Shown: positions 7,148-60,523 of the stretch, piece by piece
Layout of the letters: every line of letters begins with the position of its first letter
How positions within the stretch are numbered: the stretch's first letter is position 1
Source of the DNA: Bdellovibrionota bacterium
GTDB taxonomy: Bacteria > Bdellovibrionota > UBA1018 > CAIPTA01 > JAALKR01
Direction: 5' to 3'
DNA length: 64,000 nt
Assembly (NCBI GenBank): GCA_965207455.1
Contig: CBDBMJ010000001.1
Location: 322,514 to 386,513 of the forward strand
The notes under the pieces: generated by a model
Told to the model about the DNA's origin: nothing
Seen by the model: only the letters and a program-made list of their open reading frames with translations
Databases searched by the model: none
Program-made: the position numbers and the translations under genes

Positions 7148-7377
7148 GGTTATAAAAGGGTTCGGCGGCTGGGGGGCTTTTCTTTAGTATTATTTTGACG
7201 CTCAGCCCATTTTTTTAGGAAAATTCAATAAAAACAACAAGATTGAGGTTTTTTTCCTTATATGCGACTGCGTGATTCACTCAAAAAAATCAACAAAGAG
7301 CATTAATCTCTGGACTTTCTCACGTTTTAATGCTATGCTTCATTTTCGGTGGTAGAAATACAGAGTGGAGTGTAATA

Positions 7378-10056: not shown

Positions 10057-10231
10057 TGACTGTAGGGGCAAAGAGCTTTAGCGCGAGCATTTCAGCGTTC
10101 CTAAGCAGTTTAACGCGCAGCTCGTCTGCGGGAACGGGGTGACTCGCCTCCTTATTATAATATGTAAGCACTTGTTTTCCTCATAATTTGGTGCTAGGTA
10201 ATATTGATTACTAAAAAATATAGGGGGCACC
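10052..10231 (+). repeat. conserved GC-rich intergenic spacer, copy A (~98 % identical to 12766..12950)
   Basis: Direct comparison of the two spacers shows about 4 differences in 180 nt. The core ggggcaaagagctttagcgcgagcatttcagcg…cgcgcagctcgtctgcgggaacggggtgactcgcctcc is about 55-60 % GC in an ~35 % GC context. It is followed by TTATTATAAT and a ~100-nt leader to TATAGGGGGCACCATG. Confidence 0.7.
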
Positions 10232-12765: not shown

Positions 12766-12950
12766 GATTTGTAATGGCTGTAGGGGCCAAAGAGCCTTAG
12801 CGCGAGCATTTCAGCGCTCCTAAGCAGTTTAACGCGCAGCTCGTCTGCGGGAACGGGGTGACTCGCCTCCTTATTATAATATGTAAGCACTTGTTTTCCT
12901 CATAATTTGGTGCTAGGTAATATTGATTACTAAAAAATATAGGGGGCACC
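12766..12950 (+). repeat. conserved GC-rich intergenic spacer, copy B
   Basis: See copy A. The first ~60 nt of the downstream coding region are also near-identical. Confidence 0.7.
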
Positions 12951-22011: not shown

Positions 22012-22113
22012 GATTTTTATATAAACGCCACTATTTTGACTGATTTCTTCAATAGTTGTCACTATTTCTAAAAGAATAAACTCTAAGTAATCATTATTAT
22101 TAAAAAAAATAAT

Positions 22114-22129
22114 TGGCACAGTTATTGCT
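22114..22129 (+). promoter_or_regulatory. sigma-54 promoter (-24/-12): TGGCACagttaTTGCT
   Basis: Exact TGGCAC-N5-TTGC consensus, 16 nt upstream of the ATG at 22145, immediately downstream of the sigma-54 activator gene. It heads the TPR-flgB-flgC-fliE… block. Confidence 0.6.
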
Positions 22130-22144
22130 CTATATTGCCGTAGG

Positions 22145-24733
22145 ATGGATAAATTATTATTAATACTATTTTTATGGATGTATATGCCTCTTGAGTTAAG
22201 AGCATCTACTCTCAGTCCAAGCATTAAAACCTTCCCATCTTATACACGGCTAAAGTTTCCAGTGAATGAACGCTCAATTTTTAATGTACTCAAAGATGGC
22301 AAGGGCGATGAAATCTCACTAAAGATTAGCAATTTTAATCCTGATGCTTGGACGAACAATATACCCACATTTTCAGATAAGCGTGTATCTGTAAAAGGAG
22401 TGATGGAAAAAGGAAAAATTCATTTGTCTTTTAATCTTTTATTAAAGAACTCCAAGCACTTTACTTATTTTTATAAAGATCCACCTGTTATTATTGTGGA
22501 TATATGGAATGAGAACATAAAAAATAAAAAAAGAAAGAAAAAAAGAATTGTTCGCACAAAGAGAAAGAAAAAAATAGATAATCCATCAGCTAATTTGCTT
22601 ATTAACAAAGAAGATAGAATTTTATCTTTAAATAAAGACCTGCTTCTGGATCATGATTTTATAGTGCCAAAATTTTCATACATTGACAGAAACATAGATA
22701 CAACCAGAAGGATAGATATAGGCGCTAACTGGAAATGGACAAAAGTAGATGTGTCAAAAAAAGGATCGGTACACTTTTCTCTTGCAAAAAAGCTATTTCG
22801 AAGAAAGAGCTATGCTTTGGCAATAAAATCCACAGATATTTTTGAGAGAGATTGTCCGGAAAGTATTTATAAAAATGAGATTCATTTTTTAAAAGCATTA
22901 GCTTATTTGAAGCTCGGTGAACTAAAGAAAAATCCCAATATTATAAGGGATGGGAATAGGCGATTAAAAGTACTGATGCTGAAAGAATTTAGCGGTAAAG
23001 ATTCTAGTAAGTATAAAAAATTTATTAATGATTTGCGGTTTTACTATGGATTAAATTCTTACTTAATTGGTAATTGGGTAGAGGCTGTCTCTAATTTTGA
23101 GTTTATTAGAAAACTTTACAGCAATAAAAATGAAAAAATACCCCCGGTTTTATTGATGCTGATGGCAGAGTCTTATTTTCAGATGAAGAATTTTCAGAGA
23201 TCTAAAAGAATATATAATAATGTTATAACATTATATAAAAATACTTATTTTGAAAAAGAATCTTTATATAGATTGGCTAATACTTTAGCTGTGGAAGGAA
23301 ATTATAAAAGATCAATTGTTACATTTTTAAGAGCACTACATAAATATCCAGAATATGACAGGAAAAGAACTGAGGCTAATTTTAATTTAGCAGAAGTGTA
23401 TTATCGAACAAGAGATTTTAAAAATTCTAGAAAATTTTATAAGAGCTTTATTCAAAAAAATCCCTCTCACACCATTGCTGGCATTGCTTATATTCGATTA
23501 GGAGAGATAGCTGAACTTTTAAATAAAGATATTCGTTCTGCAGAAAAATATTATAGAAAAACACGCTCTCGATTCCCTTTTTCATTTGGGAGCAAGTTGG
23601 CATTAATACATTTGTCAAGATTGAAGCATAAAGATTCTGTGAATTTTGATTATAGATTAAAAGCTATTCGTAAAATCTATGACTCAAAGAGTACGCCCGG
23701 CGATTTAAGGATGGTGGCACAGATTGAGCTTGTCCATTATCTTATTTATAAGTCTGAGATAAATGAAGCTATCAACTTGGTGGAATTGGGACTGCGCAAT
23801 AATGGTGGAAAGTGGTATGAGAAATTTAAAAGTATTTATTCTTGGGCTTTAAGCAAGAAACTCGATCTACTAATCAATCAAGGAAATTATACGAGTGCTT
23901 TGCAATTATATAATAGTAAGAAGCAATGGATCGATGGAATCGGTCCTGGAAAATATAAGCTTTTAGCCTCCTTGTACGAAGGCCTAAATTTATTTACAAC
24001 AAGCAATGAGTATAGGAAAAAATACCTACAAATTGTTTTAAGCAAATATGGCAAAAATATAAGTGCAGCTAGTAGTGAGAATAAGAGAATTAATTTCATT
24101 AAAGCACAAAGGCTGTTTGCTCAAAATAAATTTAAAAAAGCTATTCGTTTGTTAAAAGGTTCAAGTTATTTTAAATCTCTTCATATTAGAGCCCTTTCTT
24201 ATAAGAAATTAAATAATAGGTTTAAAGCAAAATCTGAGGCAAAAAAAGGAATTAAATTATATGTAGATAATAAAAAACAAATTTCTGCAAAGGATTTTAG
24301 AAATGGAATTATAGATTTTACTGAAATCTTGTATAATGACGCAGAGGAAAATTTAAACTATAAAAAAATGCATGATTTATTGGAAAAAGCGAATAATGAG
24401 CTGCCAGTAAAATATGAACGATTTTCTTTTTTGAAAGCAGATACTTTTTGGTATCAAGAAAATCATGCTGAGGCAATTAAATCATATCAAGAAGCTATTA
24501 AGAAATATCCTAAAAGTGAACGATTAAATAGAACTAATTATAGATTAGCGATTAGTTATATATCTATTGGAAATGAAGAAATGGCTACTAAAATTTTGAA
24601 AAAACTTAAGGATAGCTCTAATGATGTCTGGAGTGAATCTGCTGAGCAAGAATTGGCACTAATGGGTTGGGAGAAGAAATATTCTTCCATTTTAAGAGCA
24701 GCACCTCCAGTTGGAATTGGTATTAATTTTTAG
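22145..24733 (+). CDS. TPR-repeat protein with N-terminal signal/anchor and a Lys/Arg-rich segment; first gene of the flgB operon
   Basis: 862 aa. Multiple TPR-like units (…AESYFQMKNFQRSKRIYNNVITLY…, …LAEVYYRTRDFKNSRKFYKSFIQKNPSH…) and the basic stretch KNKKRKKKRIVRTKRKKK. A 12-nt gap separates it from flgB. Confidence 0.55.
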   Translation: MDKLLLILFLWMYMPLELRASTLSPSIKTFPSYTRLKFPVNERSIFNVLKDGKGDEISLKISNFNPDAWTNNIPTFSDKRVSVKGVMEKGKIHLSFNLLLKNSKHFTYFYKDPPVIIVDIWNENIKNKKRKKKRIVRTKRKKKIDNPSANLLINKEDRILSLNKDLLLDHDFIVPKFSYIDRNIDTTRRIDIGANWKWTKVDVSKKGSVHFSLAKKLFRRKSYALAIKSTDIFERDCPESIYKNEIHFLKALAYLKLGELKKNPNIIRDGNRRLKVLMLKEFSGKDSSKYKKFINDLRFYYGLNSYLIGNWVEAVSNFEFIRKLYSNKNEKIPPVLLMLMAESYFQMKNFQRSKRIYNNVITLYKNTYFEKESLYRLANTLAVEGNYKRSIVTFLRALHKYPEYDRKRTEANFNLAEVYYRTRDFKNSRKFYKSFIQKNPSHTIAGIAYIRLGEIAELLNKDIRSAEKYYRKTRSRFPFSFGSKLALIHLSRLKHKDSVNFDYRLKAIRKIYDSKSTPGDLRMVAQIELVHYLIYKSEINEAINLVELGLRNNGGKWYEKFKSIYSWALSKKLDLLINQGNYTSALQLYNSKKQWIDGIGPGKYKLLASLYEGLNLFTTSNEYRKKYLQIVLSKYGKNISAASSENKRINFIKAQRLFAQNKFKKAIRLLKGSSYFKSLHIRALSYKKLNNRFKAKSEAKKGIKLYVDNKKQISAKDFRNGIIDFTEILYNDAEENLNYKKMHDLLEKANNELPVKYERFSFLKADTFWYQENHAEAIKSYQEAIKKYPKSERLNRTNYRLAISYISIGNEEMATKILKKLKDSSNDVWSESAEQELALMGWEKKYSSILRAAPPVGIGINF

Positions 24734-41780: not shown

Positions 41781-43886
41781 GTGTCTGAACTTCAAGGAAA
41801 AAATACTTTCTTTTCTGTAACAAAAAGTGCAGATTTGAGCGTTGCTGTCGGTCTGATAGGAATTTTGGTTTTGATGGTAATGCCCCTTCCCGCCTTCATT
41901 ATCGATATTTTTTTGGCGCTTTCAATTGGTGGAAGTATCCTTCTTTTGCTTACAGCGGTATATGCTAGGCGTCCGTTGGATTTCAGTGTATTGCCGTCCA
42001 TACTTTTGACGGCAACATTGTTTCGCTTAGCTTTAAACGTAGCCTCTACACGTTTAGTGTTATTAAATGGCCCAACTGAGGGGGCTGCAGCAGCTGGAAA
42101 TATTATTCAGAGCTTTGGGGAATTTGTTGTTGGCGGTAATTACGCAGTCGGTATCATTATCTTCATTATATTAGTAATTATCAATTTTGTTGTAATTACA
42201 AAAGGAGCTGGTCGGGTAGCTGAGGTGGCAGCTAGATTTACCTTGGATGCCATGCCAGGTAAGCAAATGGCTATTGATGCGGACTTAAACGCAGGTGCCA
42301 TATCGGAGAAGGAAGCCAAAGAGAGGCGAGAGACCATATCTAAAGAGGCTGACTTTTATGGAGCAATGGATGGTGCCTCTAAGTTTGTGCGAGGAGATGC
42401 CATTGCAGGCATCTTAATCGTTCTTGTGAATATTGTTGGCGGTATTATTATAGGAACGATTCAAAATGGAATGAGTATTTCTGATGCTGCTTCTGTTTTT
42501 GTACTTTTAACGGTGGGAGATGGTCTAGTAACTCAAATACCTGCATTAATAATTTCCACGGCAGCAGGTATAGTGGTTACCCATGCTAGCGGCTCTCAGG
42601 ATTTGGGTGGTGAGGTTCGATCTCAGATGATGTCCCAGCCAAAATCATTGGCTATTGCTTCTTTAGTAATGGCTTTTATTGGGCTTATTCCAGGGCTTCC
42701 TGCCTTTCCATTTCTTTTTATCAGTGGTTGTTTGGCCTATATTTTTCATCGAGTAACGAAAAGCAAACGGAAAGAAGAGGAAATGAAACTTCAAAGAGAA
42801 TCCATGGAACAGGAGAAATCTGCTGAAAATAAAATTGAAAAACTGTTGGCAATGGACGTATTGGAGTTGGAGGTAGGATATGGTCTTGTTAATATTGTCG
42901 ATCCAGATCAAGGCGGTGAATTACTTAGTAGAATCAATCAAATCAGGAGGCAGTTCGCTTTAGAATTTGGAATTATTATTCCCTCATTACGGATTAGAGA
43001 TAATTTACAATTAAACCCAGGTGAATATAATTTTATTTTAAAAGGAGTTTCTTGTGGTAGGGCTGATTTGGTTACAGATCATTTACTTGCCATGGATCCG
43101 GGAAGTGTTGTGGAATCAGTACCAGGTATTGATACAAAAGAGCCTGCGTTTGGTTTACCTGCAATTTGGATTAATCCAAATAATAAAGAATTAGCTCAAA
43201 TGAATGGCTATACGGTTGTAGATATTTCTACTGTTATAGCCACACATATTACGGAGTTATTAAGAAAGCATTTATATACATTGTTGGGTCGTCAAGAGCT
43301 TCAGACTTTACTGGATGGTATTAAAGAGGAATATCCAAAAGTTGTTGAGGATTTAATTCCTGGAATTCTTCCGGTTGGTACAATTTTAAAGGTACTGCAG
43401 AATTTGCTCCATGAAGGTGTTCCCATTCGTGATTTGAGGACTATATTAGAAATTCTTGCAGATGAAGGGGCTAGCTCTAAAGATGTGATTCTGCTTACAG
43501 AGCGCGTGCGCTGCGGCCTTCAGAGGACAATATGCTCCCGCTTGGTGAATGAGGATAAGGAAATTCATATTTTAACATTAGAGAGGCAAATTGAAGAAAA
43601 TATTGCCAATTCTATAATAAAAACGGAATCAGGTGTGGAAATTTCTCCTGATCCAGATTTTGTTCAGAAACTTTTAGGTGCTCTGAATGTGGATGTGGCT
43701 CGTTCCATAGAAGAATATTCCCAATCTATTGTGTTGTGCTCACCATCAGTGAGGTATCACTTAAAGAAATTAATTGAGAGATTTATCCCGAATTTAATAG
43801 TTTTATCTCATGATGAGATATCCCCAGAAGTAAATTTAAAGTCAATTGGAATAGTGAGGTTAAATAATGCAAGTCAAGAAATTTGA
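41781..43886 (+). CDS. flhA: flagellar export apparatus protein FlhA
   Basis: 701 aa, GTG start. N-terminal 8-TM region with the conserved FHIPG-like loop region (…DAMPGKQMAIDADLNAGAISEKEAKERR…) and a cytoplasmic C-terminal domain. Confidence 0.9.
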   Translation: MSELQGKNTFFSVTKSADLSVAVGLIGILVLMVMPLPAFIIDIFLALSIGGSILLLLTAVYARRPLDFSVLPSILLTATLFRLALNVASTRLVLLNGPTEGAAAAGNIIQSFGEFVVGGNYAVGIIIFIILVIINFVVITKGAGRVAEVAARFTLDAMPGKQMAIDADLNAGAISEKEAKERRETISKEADFYGAMDGASKFVRGDAIAGILIVLVNIVGGIIIGTIQNGMSISDAASVFVLLTVGDGLVTQIPALIISTAAGIVVTHASGSQDLGGEVRSQMMSQPKSLAIASLVMAFIGLIPGLPAFPFLFISGCLAYIFHRVTKSKRKEEEMKLQRESMEQEKSAENKIEKLLAMDVLELEVGYGLVNIVDPDQGGELLSRINQIRRQFALEFGIIIPSLRIRDNLQLNPGEYNFILKGVSCGRADLVTDHLLAMDPGSVVESVPGIDTKEPAFGLPAIWINPNNKELAQMNGYTVVDISTVIATHITELLRKHLYTLLGRQELQTLLDGIKEEYPKVVEDLIPGILPVGTILKVLQNLLHEGVPIRDLRTILEILADEGASSKDVILLTERVRCGLQRTICSRLVNEDKEIHILTLERQIEENIANSIIKTESGVEISPDPDFVQKLLGALNVDVARSIEEYSQSIVLCSPSVRYHLKKLIERFIPNLIVLSHDEISPEVNLKSIGIVRLNNASQEI

Positions 43887-45192
43887 AGCTCCAACCATAC
43901 AGGAAGCCATTAATGTTATTAAGCGTGAAATGGGTCCAAATGCGATTATTTTGTCTAAAAAAGAGCATAAAAAAGGTTTTGGATTAATGAGTAAAAAATC
44001 TATTGAGGTTACAGCAGCGGTCTCAAATGAAGAAATAGAAAAGAAAAATTTAATTGAAAGAGATTTACCAGAGAAAGATAAAAAGGAGATTTGGAGTAAG
44101 ACTGTAAAAAAACAAAAGAAAGTGTATGGAAATTATTTTGAAAATCAATTATCGAATCAAGATAAAGACAGCATTGAAATAAGTTCTTTGGCTAAAGATA
44201 AATCTCAAGAAGTAGTTACTCAGAAAAGATATGCTTATATTGATGGGGATGATATCGAGCCCATAAGTGAAGGAGAGGAAAATATTGACTCTTTATTAAA
44301 AGAGGTAAATGGATTGAAACAAGTGGTTCGAGATATGGCTGCGGATCGAAAAAAAGTTCAATATCAAGATTCCCCTGATTTATCTAATATGGATTGGAGT
44401 GATGAACTAATAGAGGCTTATCACATGCTTGCTAATTCAGGTATGAAAAAAAGTTATGTTCGTGAGCTTATTCAAGAGGTGAATTTTGATTTAAAAGATT
44501 CAGATTATACAAATAAGGAACTGGTTCAAGAAAGATTAGCTACATGTTTGATGAAAAAAGTAACAATAGCGGATCCATTGAAGAATGTGGGTGCTATATC
44601 AGGTACTTCTGATCCCTCTATTATTGCCATAATAGGCCCCACAGGTGTGGGAAAAACAACCACGATAGCAAAGATTGCAAGCAAGGCCACTGCTAAAAAT
44701 ATCAGAGTAGGTCTGGTGAATTTAGATTCTTATAAAATTGGTGCTGCAGATCAATTATCTATGTATTCAAAATTAATGAAGCTCCCTTTTCGAAATACAA
44801 GAAAAAAAGAAGAGTTACAGCAGATTTTATATGATTTCAGTTCATTAGATTTAATCTTGGTTGATACAGTTGGCTCGAGTCAAAAGGATCAAGATAAATT
44901 AGCAGAAATAAAGGGGTTGCTTTCTTCTATTTCGGGAATTAAATCTTTGTTAGTTTTAAGTGCATCTACTAGAGGTTCTGATGTTTCTGACATTGTTAAA
45001 AGATATAGTATACTTCAACCTCAAGGGGTGATTTTTTCTAAGCTAGATGAAACCAGTGCTTTTGGTTCCATGTTTAATATTCATTTGTCTTCTAAATTGC
45101 CATTAAGTTATTTTTGTGTGGGGCAAAAGGTTCCGGATGACATTGAAATGGCAAGTTCAGAGAGATTGGCAGATTTAATTTTAGATTTATAG
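43867..45192 (+). CDS. flhF: flagellar placement GTPase FlhF (SRP-type)
   Basis: 441 aa. G-domain IAIIGPTGVGKTTTIAK, DTVG and SKLDET (SRP-GTPase motifs). Confidence 0.8.
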   Translation: MQVKKFEAPTIQEAINVIKREMGPNAIILSKKEHKKGFGLMSKKSIEVTAAVSNEEIEKKNLIERDLPEKDKKEIWSKTVKKQKKVYGNYFENQLSNQDKDSIEISSLAKDKSQEVVTQKRYAYIDGDDIEPISEGEENIDSLLKEVNGLKQVVRDMAADRKKVQYQDSPDLSNMDWSDELIEAYHMLANSGMKKSYVRELIQEVNFDLKDSDYTNKELVQERLATCLMKKVTIADPLKNVGAISGTSDPSIIAIIGPTGVGKTTTIAKIASKATAKNIRVGLVNLDSYKIGAADQLSMYSKLMKLPFRNTRKKEELQQILYDFSSLDLILVDTVGSSQKDQDKLAEIKGLLSSISGIKSLLVLSASTRGSDVSDIVKRYSILQPQGVIFSKLDETSAFGSMFNIHLSSKLPLSYFCVGQKVPDDIEMASSERLADLILDL

Positions 45193-45219
45193 CAATTACA
45201 TAAAAAGGAGGGATATTTT

Positions 45220-46077
45220 TTGGAATCAAAACAAAATAAAAGTGAGAATAAAAAGAAATTATGGAATGGAGAGGACTTCATGCGTATTATTTCTGTTACT
45301 AGTGGAAAAGGCGGTGTTGGAAAATCAAATATTGTTTTGAATCTTGGAATAGCAATAAGAAAAATGGGATTGCGTGTATTGATATTAGATGGAGATTTTG
45401 GATTGGCTAATATTGATATATTAATGAACTTAAATATAAATGCTACTTTGTTTGATGTTTTAAAGAAAGATAAGAGCATTGATGAAATCATTTATAAAAG
45501 TAAATACGGCATAGATATTATTCCATCTAGCTCTGGAATGTTGAGTATGACAAATTTATCTATTCATGAGAAGGCGCAGTTTTTAAATTGCATGAAAGAG
45601 CTTGAATGTAAATATGACGTACTACTTATGGATACTGGTGCAGGAATAAATAGTGATATGATTTATTTAAATACTTCAGCAGATGATATTTTTGTTGTTA
45701 CTACTGGAGAGCCAACGTCAATAACAGATGCATATGCTGTTATAAAAATCCTTCATAAGGAATACAAAATTAAAAAAGTAAATTTATTAGTAAATCAAGT
45801 TCGAGATGATAATGAGGGTCTTGCCATATACAATAGAATTCATGAAGTTAGTGATAGATTTTTAAATGTTAGAATTGACTATCTTGGTTCTGTGAGATGG
45901 GATTCAAATGTAGTCGATTCTGTAAAAACGAGTCATCCATTTTTATCAAAATATCCAAATGGAATGGCTTCTTTGAATTGCAAAGAAATAGCAAGAAAAG
46001 TGTACCGCACTCAACATGAAAATAATTTTCATTTAAGTAAGAAATGTTTTTGGTCGGCTTTAGTGGATAGAGCTTAA
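45220..46077 (+). CDS. flhG: MinD/ParA-type ATPase FlhG (FleN/YlxH)
   Basis: Deviant Walker A SGKGGVGKS. Follows flhF. The start is possibly at the downstream ATG (MRIISV…, 45283). Confidence 0.75.
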   Translation: MESKQNKSENKKKLWNGEDFMRIISVTSGKGGVGKSNIVLNLGIAIRKMGLRVLILDGDFGLANIDILMNLNINATLFDVLKKDKSIDEIIYKSKYGIDIIPSSSGMLSMTNLSIHEKAQFLNCMKELECKYDVLLMDTGAGINSDMIYLNTSADDIFVVTTGEPTSITDAYAVIKILHKEYKIKKVNLLVNQVRDDNEGLAIYNRIHEVSDRFLNVRIDYLGSVRWDSNVVDSVKTSHPFLSKYPNGMASLNCKEIARKVYRTQHENNFHLSKKCFWSALVDRA

Positions 46078-46097: not shown

Positions 46098-46931
46098 GTG
46101 AATAAAGAAGTAGAAAAATACAAGAGTGTGGAAAATGAAGAAAATAAATCTTCCAATGACTCATATAAATCGAAAGCGCCAAAAAATATTATTATAGAGG
46201 GTCTTACGAAAGAAGAGTTAGTTATTCGTTATGCTTATTTAGTGAAATATTTAGCTCAGAAATTGGTGGTGCGATTGCCGGCTAATATTGAATTAGATGA
46301 TTTAATTAGCGTGGGAGTAATGGGTTTGATAGATGCCATAGATAAATATGATCCAAACAGACAAAATAAGTTTAAAACTTACGCGGAGTTCAGAATTCGA
46401 GGTAGTATGCTGGATGAGCTTAGAGCTCAAGATTGGGCTCCCAGGAGCGTGAGGGAAAAATCCAAGCGATTAGAGCGGACTCATGCGCAATTGATGCAAA
46501 AAACAGGTAGACAAGCAACGGAAGAAGAGGTTCGTACAGAACTCAAAATGAATCGAAAAGAATACCATGACTTATTATATGAGATACGCACTGTATCATT
46601 AGTGAATTTTGAAGATATAGGGACTCTCAAAAAAGCAGATAAGAAAGCCGTAATGGATCTTGTGGATAAAGGAATAGTGCCTAATCCGCTGGCGGAAGCT
46701 AGCCGGAATAATATTAAGAAAGTAATAGAAAATGCTATTTATGCTTTACCTGAAAAACAAAGACTAGTTTTATCTTTATACTATTATGAGGAGCTTAATT
46801 TAAGAGAGATAGGAGGAATATTGAATGTGACTGAATCAAGAGTAAGTCAACTTCATACGCAAGCAATTGTTCGATTGAAATCTAGACTTAAAAATAGATT
46901 TGATGAATTTGTACAAATGTTTAATAAATAA
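46098..46931 (+). CDS. fliA: flagellar sigma factor sigma-28 (FliA/SigD)
   Basis: 277 aa, GTG start. Region 2 (…LISVGVMGLIDAIDKYDPNRQNKFKTYAEFRIRGSMLDELR…) and region 4 HTH (…YYEELNLREIGGILNVTESRVSQLHTQAI…). Confidence 0.85.
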   Translation: MNKEVEKYKSVENEENKSSNDSYKSKAPKNIIIEGLTKEELVIRYAYLVKYLAQKLVVRLPANIELDDLISVGVMGLIDAIDKYDPNRQNKFKTYAEFRIRGSMLDELRAQDWAPRSVREKSKRLERTHAQLMQKTGRQATEEEVRTELKMNRKEYHDLLYEIRTVSLVNFEDIGTLKKADKKAVMDLVDKGIVPNPLAEASRNNIKKVIENAIYALPEKQRLVLSLYYYEELNLREIGGILNVTESRVSQLHTQAIVRLKSRLKNRFDEFVQMFNK

Positions 46932-46942
46932 AATATTATTTC

Positions 46943-47998
46943 ATGAGACGCGACATACAAAAAAATATGGGAAGATTGGAAGAGCAATTAAGTGAGCTAG
47001 AGGCAATTGTACTTAATTGTCCTTTACAAGAAAACGCAAATAAGTTAATCGATAATATACAAACTGCAAAAATCCGATCGCAACATATTCGAGAAGAGAT
47101 AGAAGAAGATATACTGTGGGGAGAGTACCGTTCTTTGGAGGAATTTTGTGATAATTTATCTCGATTTATTATCAAGGAATCAAATAAAAAAGGAATTAAT
47201 ATTTCTTTGCTCACCCATTTTATAGGGAAAGTTCCAGAATCTATTTTGAATAAAGTAAAACCTATTTTGGAGAGTTTGTTATATATTTGTTTGGAACGAT
47301 TACGTGAAGAAGGGATTGAGAAAAGACTTGAAGGCAATAAATTTTCTTCCTCCACATTGCTTTTCCAAGCAACTAGTGATCATGACTGTTTTCGTGTGAA
47401 AATTATGGATGACGGACCGAAAGATGGCGAGAGTGTTGTGAGAGAAAAAATAGATTTTTCTAATATAGTTGAGCTTTCTGGAATTTACATGTTTCGAAAA
47501 TTAGAAAGATATGGATTAAATTTTGAATTGAAAATTCCCATTCCGAGAGTTCGTCCCTTGGCCTATATACTGAAGTGGGAAAGAGAAGTTTTTGCTATTC
47601 CAGGAATTTCTGTTATTGGGAAAATGGAAAAGCTGTATTTTTCTGATTTCTTTATTTCTGATGAAAAATTATTATGTTCTGTTAGATTTAAAAATGAAAA
47701 AATTCCTATTTTTATAGTAAAATCTGGTTTAGAGCGCTTAGATCAAGAAAAATTAAAATCCTATTCCACAGATTTCTTCTGTGTAATTGTGGTTGGAACA
47801 GTGGAGACAAAAATGGCTATTCTTACGGAAAAGATTCCTGATAGGCAAATGGTTCGTATGCAATTATTGGAAAAGGTATTATCTGATGATTCTTGGTATA
47901 AGGGCTTTGCAATGTTTGATGAAGAAGGTAAGGAAAAAGTGGTTCCTTTACTGGATAGTAAAAGTTTAGAAAATTACTGTAGGATGTATGGGATATGA
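46943..47998 (+). CDS. CheA-like protein lacking the HPt (P1) and P2 domains: helical N-terminus + degenerate HATPase (P4-like) + CheW-like (P5) domain
   Basis: 351 aa, 11 nt after fliA. LERLREEGIE…FRVKIMDDGPKDG mirrors the CheA N-box/G1 region (LVRNAVDHGIE…V.V.DDGRGID), but the catalytic Asn and His are replaced (R and E). …KIPIPRVRPLAYILKW EREVFAIPGISVIGKMEK…LLCSVRFKNEKIPIFIVKSGL…TDFFCVIVVGTVETKMAILTEKI… matches the CheA P4-P5 linker (LPLTLAII) and CheW-fold motifs (EYAIP…VLGVINLRGEVLPVIDL…). Confidence 0.5.
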   Translation: MRRDIQKNMGRLEEQLSELEAIVLNCPLQENANKLIDNIQTAKIRSQHIREEIEEDILWGEYRSLEEFCDNLSRFIIKESNKKGINISLLTHFIGKVPESILNKVKPILESLLYICLERLREEGIEKRLEGNKFSSSTLLFQATSDHDCFRVKIMDDGPKDGESVVREKIDFSNIVELSGIYMFRKLERYGLNFELKIPIPRVRPLAYILKWEREVFAIPGISVIGKMEKLYFSDFFISDEKLLCSVRFKNEKIPIFIVKSGLERLDQEKLKSYSTDFFCVIVVGTVETKMAILTEKIPDRQMVRMQLLEKVLSDDSWYKGFAMFDEEGKEKVVPLLDSKSLENYCRMYGI

Positions 47999-50295
47999 AA
48001 TCAGCTTCTGTTAACTCTAGCTTTACTTCCTATTTCTCTATTCTTTGCCTGTCAATCTTGCTTTTCTATGCTTTATTCTTGGTGTATGGCTCACTGAATG
48101 ATGCGTCTCGCCTTGGACTGGAGGCAACGAAAAAAGTAAGAGTTTTATCTGGCTTAAAAGAGACTTTTAAAAATATTGAAACTCCAAAAGATTATATTTC
48201 TGCACGTAAACAGCTAAAAAAGAAAAAATTTAATGGATTTATAAAAAAAGAATTAAAAGAGATTGAATCTTGGTCCAATAAGGCAGCACTATCGAATAAA
48301 ACCTTAATGAAAAACAAAAGGCTAGTTTTTTCTGAGATTTTTTCTCTGCATAAAAAAAATATTGTACCAAGAAAAATGCGACCTATAATTTCAAGATCTA
48401 TTCAAAATGTAAATAAATTATTTATATCCAATAGTCGCCCTGAGTTCATCTTGTTATTTACGGACACAGAAAAAGAAAAATTTTTGAAAATGAAAAAAAG
48501 TCTATCCAATTTGCCTAGGCGATCAATTTCGAGTATTGATTATGTGATTAATGCTTTGAATAAGTTAAGTAAATCTGCAAAGAAAAGTGTTTCCTTGGGA
48601 AAAAACAAGAAGAGTGCTGTAAGAAATATTAACATTGCATTGAGTAAGGAGATTTCGGGAATAGAGTCGAACTTATTAAAAAATATAAATCAATTGCAGA
48701 GAAATTTTTATTTGTTCTTAGTTGTTGTTATGTTTGTGATTTTTATGAGTATATTTGGTGTGAAAATGAGTGGAAAAAGCATTTCAGCAGCATTTAAAAA
48801 GAAAAAGAAAACACTCGGTCTTTACTTGAGCTTGTATGGTTATGATAAACCTGAAGAAGTACTTAAAGAAGTAGATAAGGTTATGGATGAAGATAAAGAC
48901 TGGAATGATTTTATACGAGAAGTTGCTTATCATGAGAAAAAGTTTATAGAAAAAAATTCAGCAGAACTTTCTTTGAGCAGGAGTACACATTTCCCATTTG
49001 TTGTTTTTTCTTCAGAAGGAAAGGCAATTTACTGGAATTCTCATTTAGTCCGTACTTTGGGCGTGGGTTCCTATGATGAGGTAGGTTCTCTTTCTTTGAA
49101 AGAGTTTTTTAATCAAAGTAGTTTCTTTGATAAAGATAGGAATTTTTTAGAATCCTTTCCTTTGCCTTATAATGAATTTAGTTCCATAAAAGAAATGGAA
49201 TGTTTGGATTTATTTTTAAGGACAACCAAACAAGAAATGTTGCCAATTCGAGCATATATATACCCAATAGATACAGGAAAATTATCTGGTGGTATTCTGG
49301 TAGGTTTTGAAGATAGGAGCGATGCGGAGGAAGAAATTTCAAGAAAAATCACTGAAACTATAATGATTTTAGATGATGTTATTACGGTGATTTCCGAAGA
49401 TAGCACCCAACCGCTACCGTATTTAGACTTAGAATCTGTATCTCCACAAGTATTACCATTACTGGAGAAATTTAAACGCTTGCAAATTCATTTGAATGAA
49501 AAAGCAGATATTTTTAGAAGTGAGTTGGCAGCAGTCTTGTCATACGTGCAAAAAGAGCAAGAAATTTTACACCATATTCACAGGGAGTCAGAGGATTTAA
49601 GCAGTAAGCAAGATATCTTGCATTCCGCATTAGAGCAATTGAATCGAACAGATGGAATTTTGTCAAAAAATTGTTCTCTTGCAGAGAATAGATTGGAGAA
49701 TTTAATTCAAAGATGGAAACGATTGACTGTCGATATTGAAAATAAAGATAAAGCTAATACTAAGGCGAAAAGCTATGAAAACCAAGTGCAAAAAGTAGTG
49801 GAACAAATGCAAGTATGGGTTAAAGCTTTTTCTGAAGCTGTGGAAGTTATGAGGGAATGTAGAGATTGGGTGAAATCAGAAGCTATTAACGTCAACTTAA
49901 ATGACAAGGAAAACAAAGATGTTTTTAGAGGGCGTGTGAGAAAATTCTCTATTTCAGTTTCTGAATTTTTTCATCAATTGGAAGCTGTGGAAAAAGACTT
50001 AAAAAGCTTTATTGATAAGCACCCGGGAGGAATGGACTTTTTGGGTATTGATAGTGGTGTGGATCTGAATCCAGTATTGGAAGAGATGAGTAAAACTTAT
50101 GAAGATATGGCACAGTACCTCGCACAGTGGAAAGATGGAAATCGAAATATTAAAGAGGCTAGTCAGAAAGCAGAAAAATTTCAAGAAATTATACAAAAGT
50201 ATGATTTAGAATTGAAGGTTCTCAATAAAAACTCCCTTGTTTTAAATGAGAATGCTTGCCAAAGCCTTGTGAGATGGAGTTCACCAAAGGCTTAG
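47995..50295 (+). CDS. receptor-like membrane protein: TM1 - ~200-aa periplasmic loop - TM2 - PAS-like domain - ~400-aa coiled coil, with no recognisable MCP signalling motif
   Basis: 766 aa. TM1 FSILCLSILLFYALFLVYG and TM2 FYLFLVVVMFVIFMSIFGV. A PAS-like segment …FPFVVFSSEGKAIYWNSHLVRTLGV…. Long heptad-rich C-terminus. Overlaps the upstream gene's stop by 4 nt, so it is probably co-translated. Confidence 0.45.
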   Translation: MKSASVNSSFTSYFSILCLSILLFYALFLVYGSLNDASRLGLEATKKVRVLSGLKETFKNIETPKDYISARKQLKKKKFNGFIKKELKEIESWSNKAALSNKTLMKNKRLVFSEIFSLHKKNIVPRKMRPIISRSIQNVNKLFISNSRPEFILLFTDTEKEKFLKMKKSLSNLPRRSISSIDYVINALNKLSKSAKKSVSLGKNKKSAVRNINIALSKEISGIESNLLKNINQLQRNFYLFLVVVMFVIFMSIFGVKMSGKSISAAFKKKKKTLGLYLSLYGYDKPEEVLKEVDKVMDEDKDWNDFIREVAYHEKKFIEKNSAELSLSRSTHFPFVVFSSEGKAIYWNSHLVRTLGVGSYDEVGSLSLKEFFNQSSFFDKDRNFLESFPLPYNEFSSIKEMECLDLFLRTTKQEMLPIRAYIYPIDTGKLSGGILVGFEDRSDAEEEISRKITETIMILDDVITVISEDSTQPLPYLDLESVSPQVLPLLEKFKRLQIHLNEKADIFRSELAAVLSYVQKEQEILHHIHRESEDLSSKQDILHSALEQLNRTDGILSKNCSLAENRLENLIQRWKRLTVDIENKDKANTKAKSYENQVQKVVEQMQVWVKAFSEAVEVMRECRDWVKSEAINVNLNDKENKDVFRGRVRKFSISVSEFFHQLEAVEKDLKSFIDKHPGGMDFLGIDSGVDLNPVLEEMSKTYEDMAQYLAQWKDGNRNIKEASQKAEKFQEIIQKYDLELKVLNKNSLVLNENACQSLVRWSSPKA

Positions 50296-50924
50296 CTAGA
50301 AAAACGGTTCCTCAGTGTAAAAACCAACTTTTGGACATTTTCCCTTAACTCAACCTCATTCCCCTCGTTAGGGATAATGTAGTCTGCATGTTTGATCTTT
50401 TCTTCCTCAGGCATCTGAGTCCTCATGATTTGCTTTATCTGTTCCACGGGCATTCCATTTCGAAGAGTGATTCGTTGGATGCGAAGATCTTCCGGTGCTG
50501 TAACACAGATAACGGCTTTAAGATGACTAGTGGATCCAGCCTCCAGTAGTACGGGAGCCTCGTAGATTATAATTTTCCCTGTGCTCTCTATGGCTAACTG
50601 TTGGGCTTTTTTGAGAGCCTGCCGTCGTATTTCAGGATGGAGGAGGGCTTCCAGTTGCTTGCGTTGTTCCGGATGGGTGAAAATTTTCTTTTTTAGCCAT
50701 GGTCGTTTCAGGGCTCCTTCATGATCAAGGGCCTGGGATCCAAAGATTTCTACAATTTTAGGAAGAATGGGGCTTTGGGGAGCAGTAATCTCACGGGCAA
50801 TACTGTCTGCATCTAAGGTGGGAAAACCAAGCTCTTCAAAAAATTTTCGCACAGTGGATTTGCCCGAACCAATCCCTCCAGTGAGGCCCACCATAATAGG
50901 GATATCTTTTATTGTTTTAGCCAC
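50292..50924 (-). CDS. coaE: dephospho-CoA kinase
   Basis: 210 aa. P-loop MVGLTGGIGSGKSTV, and size and fold typical of CoaE. Confidence 0.85.
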   Translation of the reverse strand: MAKTIKDIPIMVGLTGGIGSGKSTVRKFFEELGFPTLDADSIAREITAPQSPILPKIVEIFGSQALDHEGALKRPWLKKKIFTHPEQRKQLEALLHPEIRRQALKKAQQLAIESTGKIIIYEAPVLLEAGSTSHLKAVICVTAPEDLRIQRITLRNGMPVEQIKQIMRTQMPEEEKIKHADYIIPNEGNEVELRENVQKLVFTLRNRFSS

Positions 50925-51063
50925 AATATATTATTACATATAGTAGACACCAAAAACCTCCTTTATTTCTAAAGGAGGCTTAGGGTATCTTTTTTATCAA
51001 TAGTCACAATATATTATCAGGTATTTAAACACCGAAAACTCACTTTATTTCTAAAGAAGCTTT
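50922..51063. repeat. imperfect tandem duplication of an ~83-bp unit in the coaE-OAT intergenic region
   Basis: Unit 1 is cacaatatattattacatatagtagacaccaaaaacctcctttatttctaaaggaggctt…. Unit 2 is cacaatatattatcaggtatttaaacaccgaaaactcactttatttctaaagaagcttt…. Only unit 1 retains the hairpin. Confidence 0.4.
50950..50978 (-). terminator. rho-independent terminator of the ornithine aminotransferase gene
   Basis: Perfect 9-bp stem CCTCCTTTA-tttc-TAAAGGAGG, immediately followed on the minus strand by TTTTTG. It sits ~85 nt downstream of the OAT stop and inside an ~83-bp imperfect tandem duplication (50922-51063). Confidence 0.55.
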
Positions 51064-52387
51064 ATATATTACGATTATATTCCGCAAAAGTTTCTTGGAT
51101 AATTTTACATGCTCTAAGAATTTGTGCTTCTGTAATGACTAGAGGAGGTGCGAATCGAATAATCGTTTCGTGTATGGGTTTTGCTAGAAGACCATTTTTC
51201 TCTAGTTTCGCAGAAATATCCCATGCTGATATTTTCTTCTCTTCCTGAGAATAAAATTCAATAACATTGAACAGCCCCTTACCTCGAACTTCTTTAATCC
51301 AAGGGTATTTCATGGTGGACATTTCTTTACGAAATATGGCACCGAGAGTGCTTGAATTTTCAGCCAAGTTTTCCTCTTCTAGGATTTGTAGGGCAGCCAT
51401 GGTTGTGGAACAAGCAAGAGGATTTCCTCCGTATGTTGAGCCATGCTCTCCGGGTCTGAGACACGACATAATATCTTCATCCGCCAGTACCAAAGATACG
51501 GGAAAGGCCCCTCCAGACAGAGCTTTTCCAAGAATGAGGATATGGGGACGAACGTCCTCATGATCACAGGCTAACTTTCTCCCTGTTCTGCCTAATCCCG
51601 TCTGCACTTCATCCGCGATAAATAAAACATTCTTTTCTTCGCATAGTTGGAACGTTTTTCTTAGGTAGCCATCATCTGGCACAACTACGCCAGCCTCTCC
51701 TTGTATGGGTTCTAGTAGAATGCCTGCAACATTAGGATCCTGTAGAGCTTCTTCCACAGCATTTATATTATTGTAAGGAATAATTTCAATTCCAGGTAGG
51801 AACGGACCAAAGCCATCTCGCACAAAAGAATAAGTGGAACCAGAAACAACGGCTAGGGTTCGTCCATGGAAGTTTCCTTCCATAAATATAATTTTAGCTT
51901 GATTCTTTGGAATTCCTTTCTTTCTATAGGCCCATTGTCGGCATAATTTTAGAGCAGTTTCCACACCTTCCGCACCTGTGTTCATGGGATACATTTGCTG
52001 GTAGTTGAAAAAATTTGTGACAAACTTTTCATACTCTTCAAATGTATCATTATGAAAAGCACGGGAAGTAAGCATTAATTTTTCTGCTTGACTCTTTAGT
52101 GCTTCAAGTATTTTCGGGTGGCAATGACCTTGGTTTATGGTGGAGTAGGCAGAGTGGAAATCAAAGTATTTTTTATTTTCCACATCCCATACATAAATCC
52201 CCTCGCCTCGATTGAGTGTAACAGGGATTGTTCGGTAGTTATGAGCTCCATAACTTTCTTTTGATTCTGTATTATTTTTATTAAGTACAACAGGCGTTGT
52301 CTTACAGTTATGAGACCCATAACTGTTTTCTGAAGTATTATCCACCGGACCCTCCCCACCACATGGGCGTAGGATTCCCCATAGCAA
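51062..52387 (-). CDS. rocD: ornithine aminotransferase (class-III PLP aminotransferase)
   Basis: …NYRTIPVTLNRGEGIYVWDVENKKYFDFHSAYSTINQGHCHPKILEAL…LMLTSRAFHND… and …ILLEPIQGEAGVVVP… are OAT/ArgD-family signatures. The N-terminal ~60 aa of the ORF contain an internal duplication, so the true start is likely downstream of 52387. Confidence 0.8.
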   Translation of the reverse strand: MLWGILRPCGGEGPVDNTSENSYGSHNCKTTPVVLNKNNTESKESYGAHNYRTIPVTLNRGEGIYVWDVENKKYFDFHSAYSTINQGHCHPKILEALKSQAEKLMLTSRAFHNDTFEEYEKFVTNFFNYQQMYPMNTGAEGVETALKLCRQWAYRKKGIPKNQAKIIFMEGNFHGRTLAVVSGSTYSFVRDGFGPFLPGIEIIPYNNINAVEEALQDPNVAGILLEPIQGEAGVVVPDDGYLRKTFQLCEEKNVLFIADEVQTGLGRTGRKLACDHEDVRPHILILGKALSGGAFPVSLVLADEDIMSCLRPGEHGSTYGGNPLACSTTMAALQILEEENLAENSSTLGAIFRKEMSTMKYPWIKEVRGKGLFNVIEFYSQEEKKISAWDISAKLEKNGLLAKPIHETIIRFAPPLVITEAQILRACKIIQETFAEYNRNI

Positions 52388-52720
52388 ATCCCGGAGTAAA
52401 TCCCAGAGTAAAAGTTGAACTCACATTCAATTTCGATAGTTTCGATAGTTTTAGTTTTTTCGTTTTCATAATCTTTCCTTTCTTTGTTAAAAATTAATTT
52501 GATCAGTGCGTCTAATAGAGATTTTTTTATAAATCAATACTTTTATTTTCTCTGTAAGGTCGAAATTAAAATTTTACACCCTCTAGCAAAATGAAAATTT
52601 CACAACACGACGCGTAACTACTTTTGTTTTTAAATAATATGTACATTATGTTGCGCAATATAAAAGCATTCGATTTTTCAGGAAAGATTATCGTATCGTT
52701 TGCGCATAGTTCAACACTGA

Positions 52721-52750
52721 AAGTCAAAGACTTAAAAGTCAAAGACTTAA
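52721..52750. repeat. 15-bp perfect tandem repeat (aagtcaaagacttaa x2)
   Basis: Seen directly, within a ~760-bp AT-rich ORF-free stretch. Confidence 0.5.
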
Positions 52751-53278
52751 ATGTGTTTTGTCGACTGCGCCAGCATAGAGCATTATTTAATAGATCGCAA
52801 AAGTTGTGATTATTACCTTAAACACCGTAATTCATTTACTGGGGGTAGGGCTGTTGAGGACTCCGGCTGTTAAAAGCCTATTCAAACGCCTCTTCTGACC
52901 AAAATCTCCGGTTGAAGTTAGATAAAATTACTTTATTATATTTTTTCTGCTCCATTTTGATTTCCTCCGTAAATTCAAGCTTGTTACAAAAGATTACGGA
53001 GCTAAAGTACCTAATTATAGCAAAAGTAATTAGATTTAAAGAAAAAAATATTGACACTAAATTGAAAAGTGTATAGTAATGCCTTTAACGGAGGGGGCAT
53101 ATGGTGTGTCCTTTTAAAATTAAAAAATTAAATTAGAAAGGAAAGAAAGTTATGAACAACAAAACAAAAAATAATGCGCTATGGTTAACTGTTTTTTTTG
53201 CAGGGGTAGGACTGGTGTCAACTAGTTTTGCATTTGACGAAGGAGCTGAAGATTTGAGGGAGCGATCTCTGAATAATT

Positions 53279-54628
53279 CTAGAAGGATTGTATCTGAGCC
53301 TCTATTTTCCACAGCCTCCTATAAGAAGATAGAAGCTCTTTAGGTGTTGCCTCTTCTATATTCGTACAAAGACCGGCAATACCATCCCATTTTCTATCTT
53401 CCTCGATTATTTTTTTATTTACAGCCACGCTGCCCTTAGATTTTTCCAGAAATCGTCCAATACCTCTATTTTGAGTAAGTTTTTTTGTATCAATGGTGCC
53501 GTCTTTTCCTTTTAATTTTTCTATCACACTCAAGATCTTCTCTCTCTTATATGCATCGTGTGCAGCTCTCTTTTGAGAATAAACTGCTACCACTCGTCTC
53601 CCATCATTGCAGAACTCGAATACGCTCCTATCTTCATCTATAGCGTTATAGTTATTTAAATTCAAAACTTCCTCCTGTAGCTTCTTCGTCATTTTCCTCA
53701 AAGGACAAGAGATAATATACTCCATAGAACGCTCACCATGATCTTCTTTATCTTCAAAATAAGAGAAGTTCTTTTTTGAGAACATTGCTTTATCCGCAGT
53801 CACTCGAATTTTATTTAATTTATATTTCTTCTTAATTTTTTCTAGGCAATGGATAAACGTTTTTGTTTCTGCGGTATTGCCTGGGAATACCTCATAACTA
53901 ATTGGTAAGCCATCGGAGTCTGTAAGCAGTGCAAGCACCACTTGTACTTCTTTAAATTTACTATCCTTGCTGAAACCAAAGTTTTTTAAATCTGTCACAT
54001 TCGTATTTTCAAAGTATAGTGTCGTTACATCAAATAGCATAATATCTAAAGCCTGACTCTTATCTATCATTTTCCTTGATAATTTAGCCTTGATTTCCTC
54101 TTCTCTCTCAGAAAGATGGTCCATCATTCTGAGTATCTGGCTATGAGAGGATTGCATTTCAAATCTATCTAACATTACTTGGATAGATCTGCGTTTACTA
54201 GATGGCTCAACATATCTGGCAAGCACGCAGTATTTCAAAACTTTGTTCCACTCTCTATCTTTTCTAGTATTTGAAATGATTTCATTAAGACCTAGCTGAT
54301 CATAAATGAAACCGAGAATATCCGGAATACCATCATTAATAGCATCCCTCCCCTCAAGGTAACAAAGGCTTGTGGTAAGTGGAAGAGGAATGGGTTCTTG
54401 CTTTTGCTTTGTTTCCATTTCTGCTTTTATATTCAAAGCAATTTTTTTATAATACTCTATCATTTGTGGATCCTTGGATTGACCCACTGTTTTGATTATT
54501 TCCTGCCTAACTTTTCCATTTATTCTGTATCCACGAACTAGGCGAACAACCGTATTATGGCAAAATAAAAATAATATTTTATTTTTTAAAGACGATGCTG
54601 ACAAAATGTTTTTTCTATTACGACACAA
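53279..54628 (-). mobile_element. IS1634/IS4-family DDE transposase gene, 3'-truncated (IS remnant)
   Basis: 449 aa. N-terminus …YRINGKVRQEIIKTVG…. DDE triad contexts DVTTLYFE, VTADKAM and C-terminal YRRLWKIEAQIQSF (the Y-x2-R-x3-E signature). The ORF stops immediately after this motif, whereas intact family members continue for ~80-100 aa. No further ORF follows downstream, and inverted repeats were not identifiable by eye. Confidence 0.65.
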
Positions 54629-59601: not shown

Positions 59602-60441
59602 TTAAACTCTTCCTAAAAGCTGTACTACGCCTTCTCCATGACTATTAGCTTGTCCTAAGACGGCGATACCTGCTTGCATTAAAATTTTGTTTTTTGCGAG
59701 TTCTGCTGTTTCCTCTGCCATATCTGCGTCGCTTATACGAGAGTTTGCAGCAGACATATTTTCCACACTTACTCTAATATTATTTAGAGTGGACTGTAGC
59801 CTGTTTTGTATGGCTCCAAAATTAGCACGGATTCTAGACACCTGTACAATGGCGCTATCTATTGTATCCAGAGAATTCTGTGAATTTACTTTTTCTTCCA
59901 CACTTGTTTCGTCTAATTCAAGTGCGGCTGAGGAAACATTTGTTCGGCTGACATCAAAGGTAATTCTATCCACTGTGGGATTATTTCGAGTACCCACTTG
60001 GATGTCTATTTTTTTACCAGAACCATTTAGTAGAGGCACTCGATTAAACTCGGAAGAGTTAGCAATTCGATCTATTTCATCTTTAAGAGCGCTATATTCC
60101 ACATTTAAAAATTTTCGTTCTTCTGCTCCAATAGTATCGGAAGCTGCTTGTACGGAGAGTTCTCTTAGTCGAATTAAAATTCTACTTACTTCCGTGAGTC
60201 CGCCTTCAGCTACTTGAATCAGGGAGATACCGTCTTGGGCATTTCTGCCAGCTTGCCCCAATCCTCTTATTTGTGCTTTTAGGTTTTCACTAATGGCCAG
60301 CCCAGCTGCATCGTCTCCTGCACGATTGATGCGGTTACCGCTAGCCAATCTTTCCAGAGATTTTTCTAAAGCAGTACTGGTGCCTGCCAGCGACCTTTGG
60401 GCGTTTATTGATGATATATTGGTGTTTATCCTTAAACTCAT
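59602..60441 (-). CDS. fliC: flagellin
   Basis: 279 aa. N-terminal MSLRINTNISSINAQRSLAGTSTALEKSLERLASGNRINRAGDDAAGLAISE and C-terminal …AETAELAKNKILMQAGIAVLGQANSHGEGVVQLLGRV are conserved D0/D1 segments. RBS GGAGG. Confidence 0.9.
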   Translation of the reverse strand: MSLRINTNISSINAQRSLAGTSTALEKSLERLASGNRINRAGDDAAGLAISENLKAQIRGLGQAGRNAQDGISLIQVAEGGLTEVSRILIRLRELSVQAASDTIGAEERKFLNVEYSALKDEIDRIANSSEFNRVPLLNGSGKKIDIQVGTRNNPTVDRITFDVSRTNVSSAALELDETSVEEKVNSQNSLDTIDSAIVQVSRIRANFGAIQNRLQSTLNNIRVSVENMSAANSRISDADMAEETAELAKNKILMQAGIAVLGQANSHGEGVVQLLGRV

Positions 60442-60496: not shown

Positions 60497-60523
60497 TAAT
60501 CGGAACTTTGGGATAGAACTTTA
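60497..60523 (-). promoter_or_regulatory. sigma-28 (FliA) promoter of the flagellin gene: TAAAGTTC-N11-TCCGATTA
   Basis: Minus-strand sequence cataaagttctatcccaaagttccgattatattttt matches the consensus TAAAGTTT-N11-GCCGATAA closely. It is ~55 nt upstream of the flagellin ATG. Confidence 0.65.

Follow-up and report, generated by a model that had tools for sequence, protein, structure and literature searches.

We describe here two adjacent genes, ORF-A and ORF-B (ORF, open reading frame), which close the flagellar gene string of a Bdellovibrionota bacterium (assembly GCA_965207455.1, contig CBDBMJ010000001.1, positions 322,514 to 386,513; this whole 64-kb stretch is referred to as the window, and positions are counted from its first nucleotide). 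The first of them stands directly behind fliA, the gene for sigma-28. Its product descends from the P3-P4-P5 core of the histidine kinase CheA and, judging from the sequence, is a pseudokinase that cannot serve as a histidine kinase itself. The second encodes a sensor-like transmembrane protein. The finding suggests that a part of CheA has been reused for a flagellum-linked, phosphorylation-free job, by a pair of proteins that has no name and is conserved within one branch of Bdellovibrionota, a phylum of predatory bacteria. The genes in question are as follows.

46943..47998, + strand: ORF-A, 351 aa, predicted CheA-core pseudokinase (ORF list, family profile, AlphaFold2, Foldseek, hhalign)
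47995..50295, + strand: ORF-B, 766 aa, transmembrane sensor-like protein (ORF list, hydropathy, AlphaFold2)
47995..47998, + strand: ATGA overlap of the ORF-A stop and the ORF-B start (sequence)

The CheA core of ORF-A

A likeness of ORF-A to CheA had been proposed in a first-pass annotation made from the sequence alone. It was seen with a family profile and with AlphaFold2 and Foldseek, whereas Pfam alone remained below threshold. In the single-sequence Pfam search the best match was CheW with an E-value of 0.2, and the thresholds of HATPase_c, H-kinase_dim and CheW were also missed by the family; direct sequence comparison with NCBIfam and the PDB returned nothing meaningful, and a word-indexed homologue search retrieved the query itself only. 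The direct Pfam, NCBIfam and PDB matches of both ORF-A and ORF-B (e.g., internalin or OKR_DC_1_N) were sub-threshold or spurious and were taken as noise. An exhaustive phmmer search against 1.84 billion cluster representatives (50% clustering) delivered a family of 20 proteins with 20-37% identity, mostly 330-365 aa in length, with two shorter members of 251 and 298 aa. The profile of these 20 members matched Thermotoga maritima CheA-289 in the PDB (1b3q, 3ja6) with E-values of 8e-10 to 3e-9, running co-linearly from P3 through P4 to P5.

The AlphaFold2 model of ORF-A, computed from the family alignment, reached a predicted local distance difference test score (pLDDT) of 87.9 and a predicted template-modelling score (pTM) of 0.81, and shows a hairpin of helices at the N-terminus, then an alpha/beta domain and a double beta-barrel. 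The top Foldseek matches of this model were the CheA chains of E. coli core signalling units (6s1k, 8c5v; E-values 8e-19 to 3e-17), followed by CheA-289, P4-P5:CheW complexes and isolated P4 and P5 domains. Comparison by hhalign placed ORF-A on residues 308-606 of E. coli CheA (92.6% probability, E-value 4.5e-7), and phmmer with E. coli CheA as query matched two members of the ORF-A family directly (4-5e-5). The descent of ORF-A from the CheA core follows from the family profile, the predicted structure, the hhalign result and this last search.

Three domains can be delimited: a P3-like dimerisation hairpin (aa ~1-60), a degenerate P4 domain of the Bergerat fold (~61-200) and a P5 CheW-like double barrel (~201-351). 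For P3, profile positions 15-65 fall on the start of CheA-289, the model has helices at 2-24 and 32-58, and Foldseek retrieved a P3P4 structure (4xiv) along with P3-P4-P5 structures. For P5, profile positions 182-323 align with the T. maritima P5 domain, and Foldseek retrieved 2ch4, 3ur1 and 4jpb. The P4 fold is kept as well (Foldseek matches to P4 with a template-modelling score relative to the target of ~0.6), but of its catalytic boxes only G1 is left. ORF-A clearly belongs to the CheA-core fold family, although it is not a CheA proper, for which P1 and the full set of catalytic boxes are missing.

No P1 (HPt) domain was detected in ORF-A: its N-terminal residues fall on the beginning of P3, and the model shows the P3 hairpin alone before P4. 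The P2 domain is absent, too, and there is no room for either of the two, since ORF-A starts 11 nt after fliA. The first-pass annotation had come to the same view of P1 and P2, and both strings it had quoted, KIPIPRVRPLAYILKW and LERLREEGIE, are present in ORF-A. Its statement that the protein retains P4 and P5 only was right as to the likeness to these two domains (profile, Foldseek), but not as to the 'only', as the P3 hairpin is also kept.

In the alignment, His376, Asn380 and His384 of E. coli CheA correspond to Ser111, Ile115 and Arg119 of ORF-A. Asn is missing from the N380 column in all 20 family members, which have Ala, Val, Ile or Leu there, while the G1 motif 'DDG' is kept in 18-19 of the 20. 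After G1, ~45 residues are gone (E. coli ~426-470), and with them the F box, the G2 box and the ATP lid. The substitution of the N-box Asn and His proposed earlier is consequently borne out, even if the proposed N-box register was off by one residue, and the ATP lid described as reduced falls within the deleted segment. The deeper clade of the family (loci L012, L013, L026 and L042) reads 'LD-YGVE..ERL', nearer to 'LD-HGIE..KRL' of CheA, and shows the same deletion and no Asn; the loss, being shared by both clades, is therefore old and common. With P1 and P2 lost, and P4 stripped of the elements for ATP binding and catalysis, ORF-A is considered unable to act as a histidine kinase, and neither autophosphorylation nor phosphotransfer to CheY is predicted for it.

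The ORF-A family is small and fast-evolving, with its full length of ~350 aa kept. Its P3, P4 and P5 domains diverge alike (~23-25% mean pairwise identity), and the DD of G1, R204, R305, W318 and P335 are near-invariant. The conservation of length and fold, in spite of a divergence that is equal over the three domains, argues for selection on a structural role of ORF-A.

Compared with CheA (1b3q; 6s1k, 8c5v), ORF-A has the same order and fold of P3, P4 and P5, and the linker 'LPLxxxR/I', the G1 'DDG' and the start of P3 (LEEQLERL versus EKLDNLMDL) align. It differs from CheA by the absence of P1 (Hpt), P2, F box, G2 box and lid, by the replacement of the N-box Asn with a hydrophobic residue or Ala, and by having no gene for CheW, CheY or a methyl-accepting chemotaxis protein (MCP) beside it. 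In the latest survey of CheA architectures, P1, P3, P4 and P5 were present in every homologue surveyed (PMC10782961). The nearest precedents come from R. sphaeroides, in which CheA4 has no Hpt domain and CheA3 has a degenerate kinase domain without the Mg2+/ATP-binding residues (PMC10782961); these exemplify an HPt-less and a kinase-dead relative of CheA, respectively. However, CheA4 is an active kinase and phosphorylates the P1 domain kept by CheA3, making up a working phosphorelay encoded in a che cluster, whereas ORF-A unites both losses in one protein and belongs to a flagellar operon. The full-text literature searched offered no account of such a pair, or of a dead CheA core standing alone in a flagellar operon, and no profile library or source names ORF-A or ORF-B, in agreement with the initial impression that a system of this composition had not been described.

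Architecture of ORF-B

Hydropathy analysis identified two transmembrane segments in ORF-B, at ~9-35 and 233-261, with a Lys-rich stretch after the second. Between them lies a periplasmic helical bundle (~36-232), which resembles the sensor domains of PilJ and TorS; a helical linker leads from the second segment to a PAS domain (~335-440), and the C-terminal part is made of long helices (487-632, 638-675 and 692-762), in which a KHPGG loop is conserved. The PAS domain has an alpha/beta fold in the AlphaFold2 model (19 homologues, pLDDT 72.8), and the Foldseek matches were PAS/LOV domains only. ORF-B shares with MCPs the succession of a transmembrane segment, a periplasmic helical-bundle sensor of ~200 aa, a second transmembrane segment, a cytoplasmic PAS domain and long helices. 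The first-pass annotation had outlined the same layout, but its coiled coil of ~400 aa was too long, as the helices at 442-762 amount to ~320 aa.

That ORF-B has no MCP signalling motif was confirmed. The Pfam MCPsignal domain was found neither in ORF-B nor in its scanned relatives, its profile matched generic coiled coils in the PDB, and its HH comparison with E. coli Tar and Tap gave results no better than the reversed-sequence control. A reading of ORF-B as a cryptic MCP, by the by-eye likeness of 'AINVNLN / LNANNSILGSK' at a predicted helix turn to the MCP tip 'LALNAAIEAAR', was dropped, as the objective tests were unsupportive. No known or enzymatic output domain was found in ORF-B. The protein is sensor-like with an MCP-like topology, and its descent from MCPs is not shown. 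The earlier proposal that both proteins derive from a chemosensory array is supported for the CheA-derived ORF-A, but not for ORF-B, whose C-terminal helices have no detectable homology to the MCP signalling domain.

Gene order and distribution in Bdellovibrionota

The pair is framed by the following genes.

41781..46077, + strand: flhA, flhF and flhG, directly upstream of fliA in one gene string (translations)
46098..46931, + strand: fliA (sigma-28), 277 aa, the operon anchor, directly upstream of ORF-A (ORF list)
50292..50924, - strand: coaE, convergent with ORF-B, stop codons overlapping (ORF list)

The coordinates bear out that ORF-A lies 11 nt behind fliA and that ORF-B overlaps the ORF-A stop, by the four nucleotides ATGA; this overlap suggests translational coupling of ORF-A and ORF-B. 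Neither a sigma-28-type promoter nor a terminator separates fliA, ORF-A and ORF-B, and no terminator precedes the end of ORF-B; a generic promoter/terminator scan of the window was uninformative. A sigma-28 promoter ahead of the pair was considered and rejected: the sole match in the window, TAAAGTT-N11-TCCGATTA (CCGAT) at 60499-60523 on the - strand, precedes the flagellin gene (59602-60441), the upstream region of which also contains a strong Shine-Dalgarno sequence, AAGGAGGAG. The original description of the pair as wired to sigma-28 is better narrowed to a predicted co-transcription with the sigma-28 gene.

The + strand of the window carries a long string of flagellar genes, which begins with genes for a sigma-54 activator and a TPR protein, continues with flgB, flgC, fliE, fliF, fliG, fliH, fliI, fliJ, fliK, flgD, flgE, fliL, fliM, fliN, fliO, fliP and fliR, and ends with flhB, flhA, flhF, flhG and fliA, followed by ORF-A and ORF-B as the last two genes. 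The convergent coaE marks the end of the flagellar operon. At the head of the string (20617-24733, + strand), the activator is FlrC/FleR-like, has a receiver domain and comprises 464 aa, and the multi-TPR protein comprises 862 aa; both precede flgB. No cheA, cheW, cheY, MCP, cheR/B or motAB genes were found in the 64-kb window, which confirms the earlier observation on motAB, cheY, cheW and canonical cheA.

Related loci were sampled by a FliA-alignment scan with one genome per GTDB species, which gave 80 loci anchored on FliA, almost all labelled Bdellovibrionota or its older synonyms. Canonical che genes were absent within 10 kb of fliA in the window and in every one of these 80 loci; a fliA neighbourhood without che genes is hence the usual state among them, and this speaks of the surroundings of fliA only. 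The order flhA-flhF-flhG-fliA was also annotated by Pfam in L002, L004 and L006. FliA of the window is 62-68% identical to FliA of the related loci, which carry Sigma70_r2/r3/r4 domains; among these loci, ORF-A is only ~25-37% identical.

All homologues of ORF-A and ORF-B found derive from metagenomes or metagenome-assembled genomes, and the named ones belong to Bdellovibrionota or its older synonyms; all named ORF-B homologues are labelled 'hypothetical protein'. Whether the pair is conserved beside fliA in relatives was a question set beforehand, and such synteny was found. The closest ORF-A homologues are all located directly after a FliA gene, and where the contig continues, they are followed by an ORF-B homologue of ~765 aa and then by coaE and a 7TMR-HD gene, as in the window. 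The order fliA/ORF-A/ORF-B occurs in nine distinct loci (L002, L004/5, L006, L007, L009, L012, L013, L026 and L042), i.e., in every related locus with enough sequence. Among the 80 loci, the ORF-A family is present in L008-L010 and in the deeper clade, with ORF-B next to it wherever the sequence reaches. ORF-A and ORF-B overlap by 4 nt in L002, L004-L007, L009, L012 and L026; the figure is 11 nt in L013 and 8 nt in L042. A convergent coaE follows the pair in L004, L005 and L007, with one extra gene in between in L006. The latter (L006:13377-14300) encodes a trypsin-like serine protease and overlaps the stop of the ORF-B homologue.

Outside these loci, the slot behind fliA is filled differently. 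In about 30 Bacteriovoracia loci, an ORF-B homologue of ~785 aa (hhalign 99% probability, E-value 7e-18, 593 columns) was found either directly after fliA or behind a protein of ~313 aa. A reading of the ~313-aa proteins as diverged ORF-A was rejected, as hhalign gave an E-value of 0.03 and there was no PDB or Pfam match; homology is unsupported. They form an unannotated family (L040, L052, L053, L056, L058 and others; e.g., L056:10756-11727) with an invariant 'HFPFLFRPxSxIIP'-type motif, for which Pfam, PDB and HH comparisons showed no similarity to ORF-A or any other protein. In Bdellovibrio-type loci, such as L044, fliA is followed first by a gene for a tyrosine recombinase.

Further features of the window were noted. 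Between coaE and the 7TMR-HD gene (51062-54628, - strand) lie a class-III aminotransferase-like ORF (51062-52387, by eye) and a DDE_Tnp_1 transposase gene (53279-54628). In L004, L006 and L007, the 7TMR-HDED gene follows coaE directly, and for this reason the segment looks like an insertion specific to the genome of the window. Three large paralogues with a DUF4953 Met-zincin domain (7330-10056, 10232-11899 and 12951-15461) are encoded at 7330-15461 on the + strand, interleaved with ORFs without Pfam match. Two unusual fusions are encoded on the same strand: an 856-aa protein joining DHquinase_I and EPSP-synthase (2823-5393) and a 716-aa protein joining a VTT (DedA-type) membrane domain and a pyridine nucleotide-disulfide oxidoreductase (17570-19720).

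Possible function of the pair

The explanation we favour, with a probability of roughly 0.5, is that ORF-A and ORF-B form a membrane complex which acts on a flagellar target without a phosphorelay. The two proteins would assemble in fixed proportions, and an ORF-A dimer, held by P3, would use its CheW-like P5 domain to dock on the stalk helices of an ORF-B dimer, a contact resembling that between CheA P5 and the receptor in the core signalling unit. As phosphotransfer appears impossible in ORF-A, signal or positional information would be passed by protein-protein contact. The most likely target would be the flagellar pole, the basal body or the control of flagellar genes, and not CheY, because the pair, encoded last in the early flagellar operon, would be produced along with FlhF, FlhG and FliA. 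A polar landmark and a non-phosphorelay sensory input to the motor had been suggested as possible roles in the first-pass annotation. Possible, though somewhat doubtful, is the more specific proposal that the CheA core has turned into a kinase-independent adaptor which, together with a PAS-containing transmembrane sensor, relays a cue from the environment or the cell envelope straight to the flagellar apparatus, through changes in conformation or assembly. It could then target the basal body, the activity of FliA or the placement that depends on FlhF/FlhG, along a route that dispenses with any phosphorelay.

Several observations weigh against a membrane complex of ORF-A and ORF-B. The pTM of the ORF-B model is low (0.30) and the packing of its helices is uncertain, and the stalk has no detectable homology to the MCP signalling domain, the usual binding partner of P5 and CheW. 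The Bacteriovoracia homologues of ORF-B occur without ORF-A; for that reason the two are not an obligate pair, and ORF-B does not generally depend on ORF-A. Moreover, no Shine-Dalgarno sequence is visible upstream of ORF-A, unlike the flagellin gene.

Other explanations have been considered. Polarly flagellated gammaproteobacteria have che and parC/parP genes behind fliA, and a CheA remnant in this slot would fit such an ancestry. ORF-A might be an array scaffold of the ParP kind that enters canonical MCP/CheA/CheW arrays encoded elsewhere via P5 and P3, with ORF-B anchoring the arrays at the flagellated pole; the pair would then organise chemotaxis, not replace it. The P3-P4-P5 fold is intact in ORF-A, and like ParP of Vibrio and Pseudomonas the protein is predicted to be non-catalytic, has a CheW-like domain and is encoded downstream of fliA. 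The CheW-like C-terminus of Vibrio ParP enters core units via contacts with MCPs and CheA, and arrays are placed at the pole through these contacts (PMC5706961). However, ParP consists of a CheW-like domain and a ParC-binding N-terminus only, without P3 or P4, and it pairs with the ParA-like ATPase ParC instead of a PAS protein of the membrane; beside ORF-A there is no parC-like gene. The lack of canonical che genes within 10 kb of fliA in the window and the 80 loci, and an evolution of ORF-A much faster than that of FliA (20-37% versus 62-68% identity), which is unusual for a part of a conserved lattice, make this explanation unlikely. We attribute a still lower probability to a flagellar gene regulator, whereby the ORF-B/ORF-A complex would bind or sequester FliA or another regulator on a periplasmic or PAS cue and so tune late genes without phosphorylation. 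The pair adjoins fliA in all its loci with predicted co-transcription, and ORF-B has sensor domains and no enzymatic output. There is also a precedent in Tls of E. coli B2 strains, a chemoreceptor-like protein that sequesters the transcription factor FlhDC, i.e., a part of chemosensory origin controlling flagellar biology without CheA/CheY signalling (PMC12623472). Nevertheless, Tls is a recognisable Trg-like MCP, whereas no MCP domain was recognised in ORF-B; it has no CheA-like partner and is unrelated in sequence. In profile scans, neither ORF-A nor ORF-B was similar to anti-sigma factors such as FlgM, and gene adjacency is the sole link to FliA.

Finally, ORF-A could be the functionless leftover of a cheA gene that once followed fliA, with ORF-B as an unrelated chance neighbour. 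The loss of all catalytic motifs and the fast divergence would agree with this, as would the Bacteriovoracia slot, where ORF-B persists and ORF-A is absent. But the reading frames are intact at ~350 aa in 20 divergent representatives, the three-domain fold is confidently predicted by AlphaFold2, the residues listed above are near-invariant, and the overlapping or tightly abutting frames of ORF-A and ORF-B are kept over two deep clades. Neutral decay is unlikely on these grounds, and we consider such a remnant very improbable.

CheA is seen as the enzymatic centre of chemosensory systems, and as an invariant one. The survey that found its domains in every homologue relied on domain models which are blind to the ORF-A family, and a P3-P4-P5 pseudokinase that stands alone and is conserved in a flagellar operon indicates that the CheA scaffold can persist for a non-catalytic role. 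Two proteins labelled 'hypothetical' and encoded last in the fliA operon thereby gain a testable identity, and with ORF-B an as yet undescribed membrane module linked to the flagellum comes into view, which is found widely behind fliA in Oligoflexia and Bacteriovoracia. Should a function be confirmed, this would be an example from bacteria of pseudokinase evolution in the two-component superfamily.

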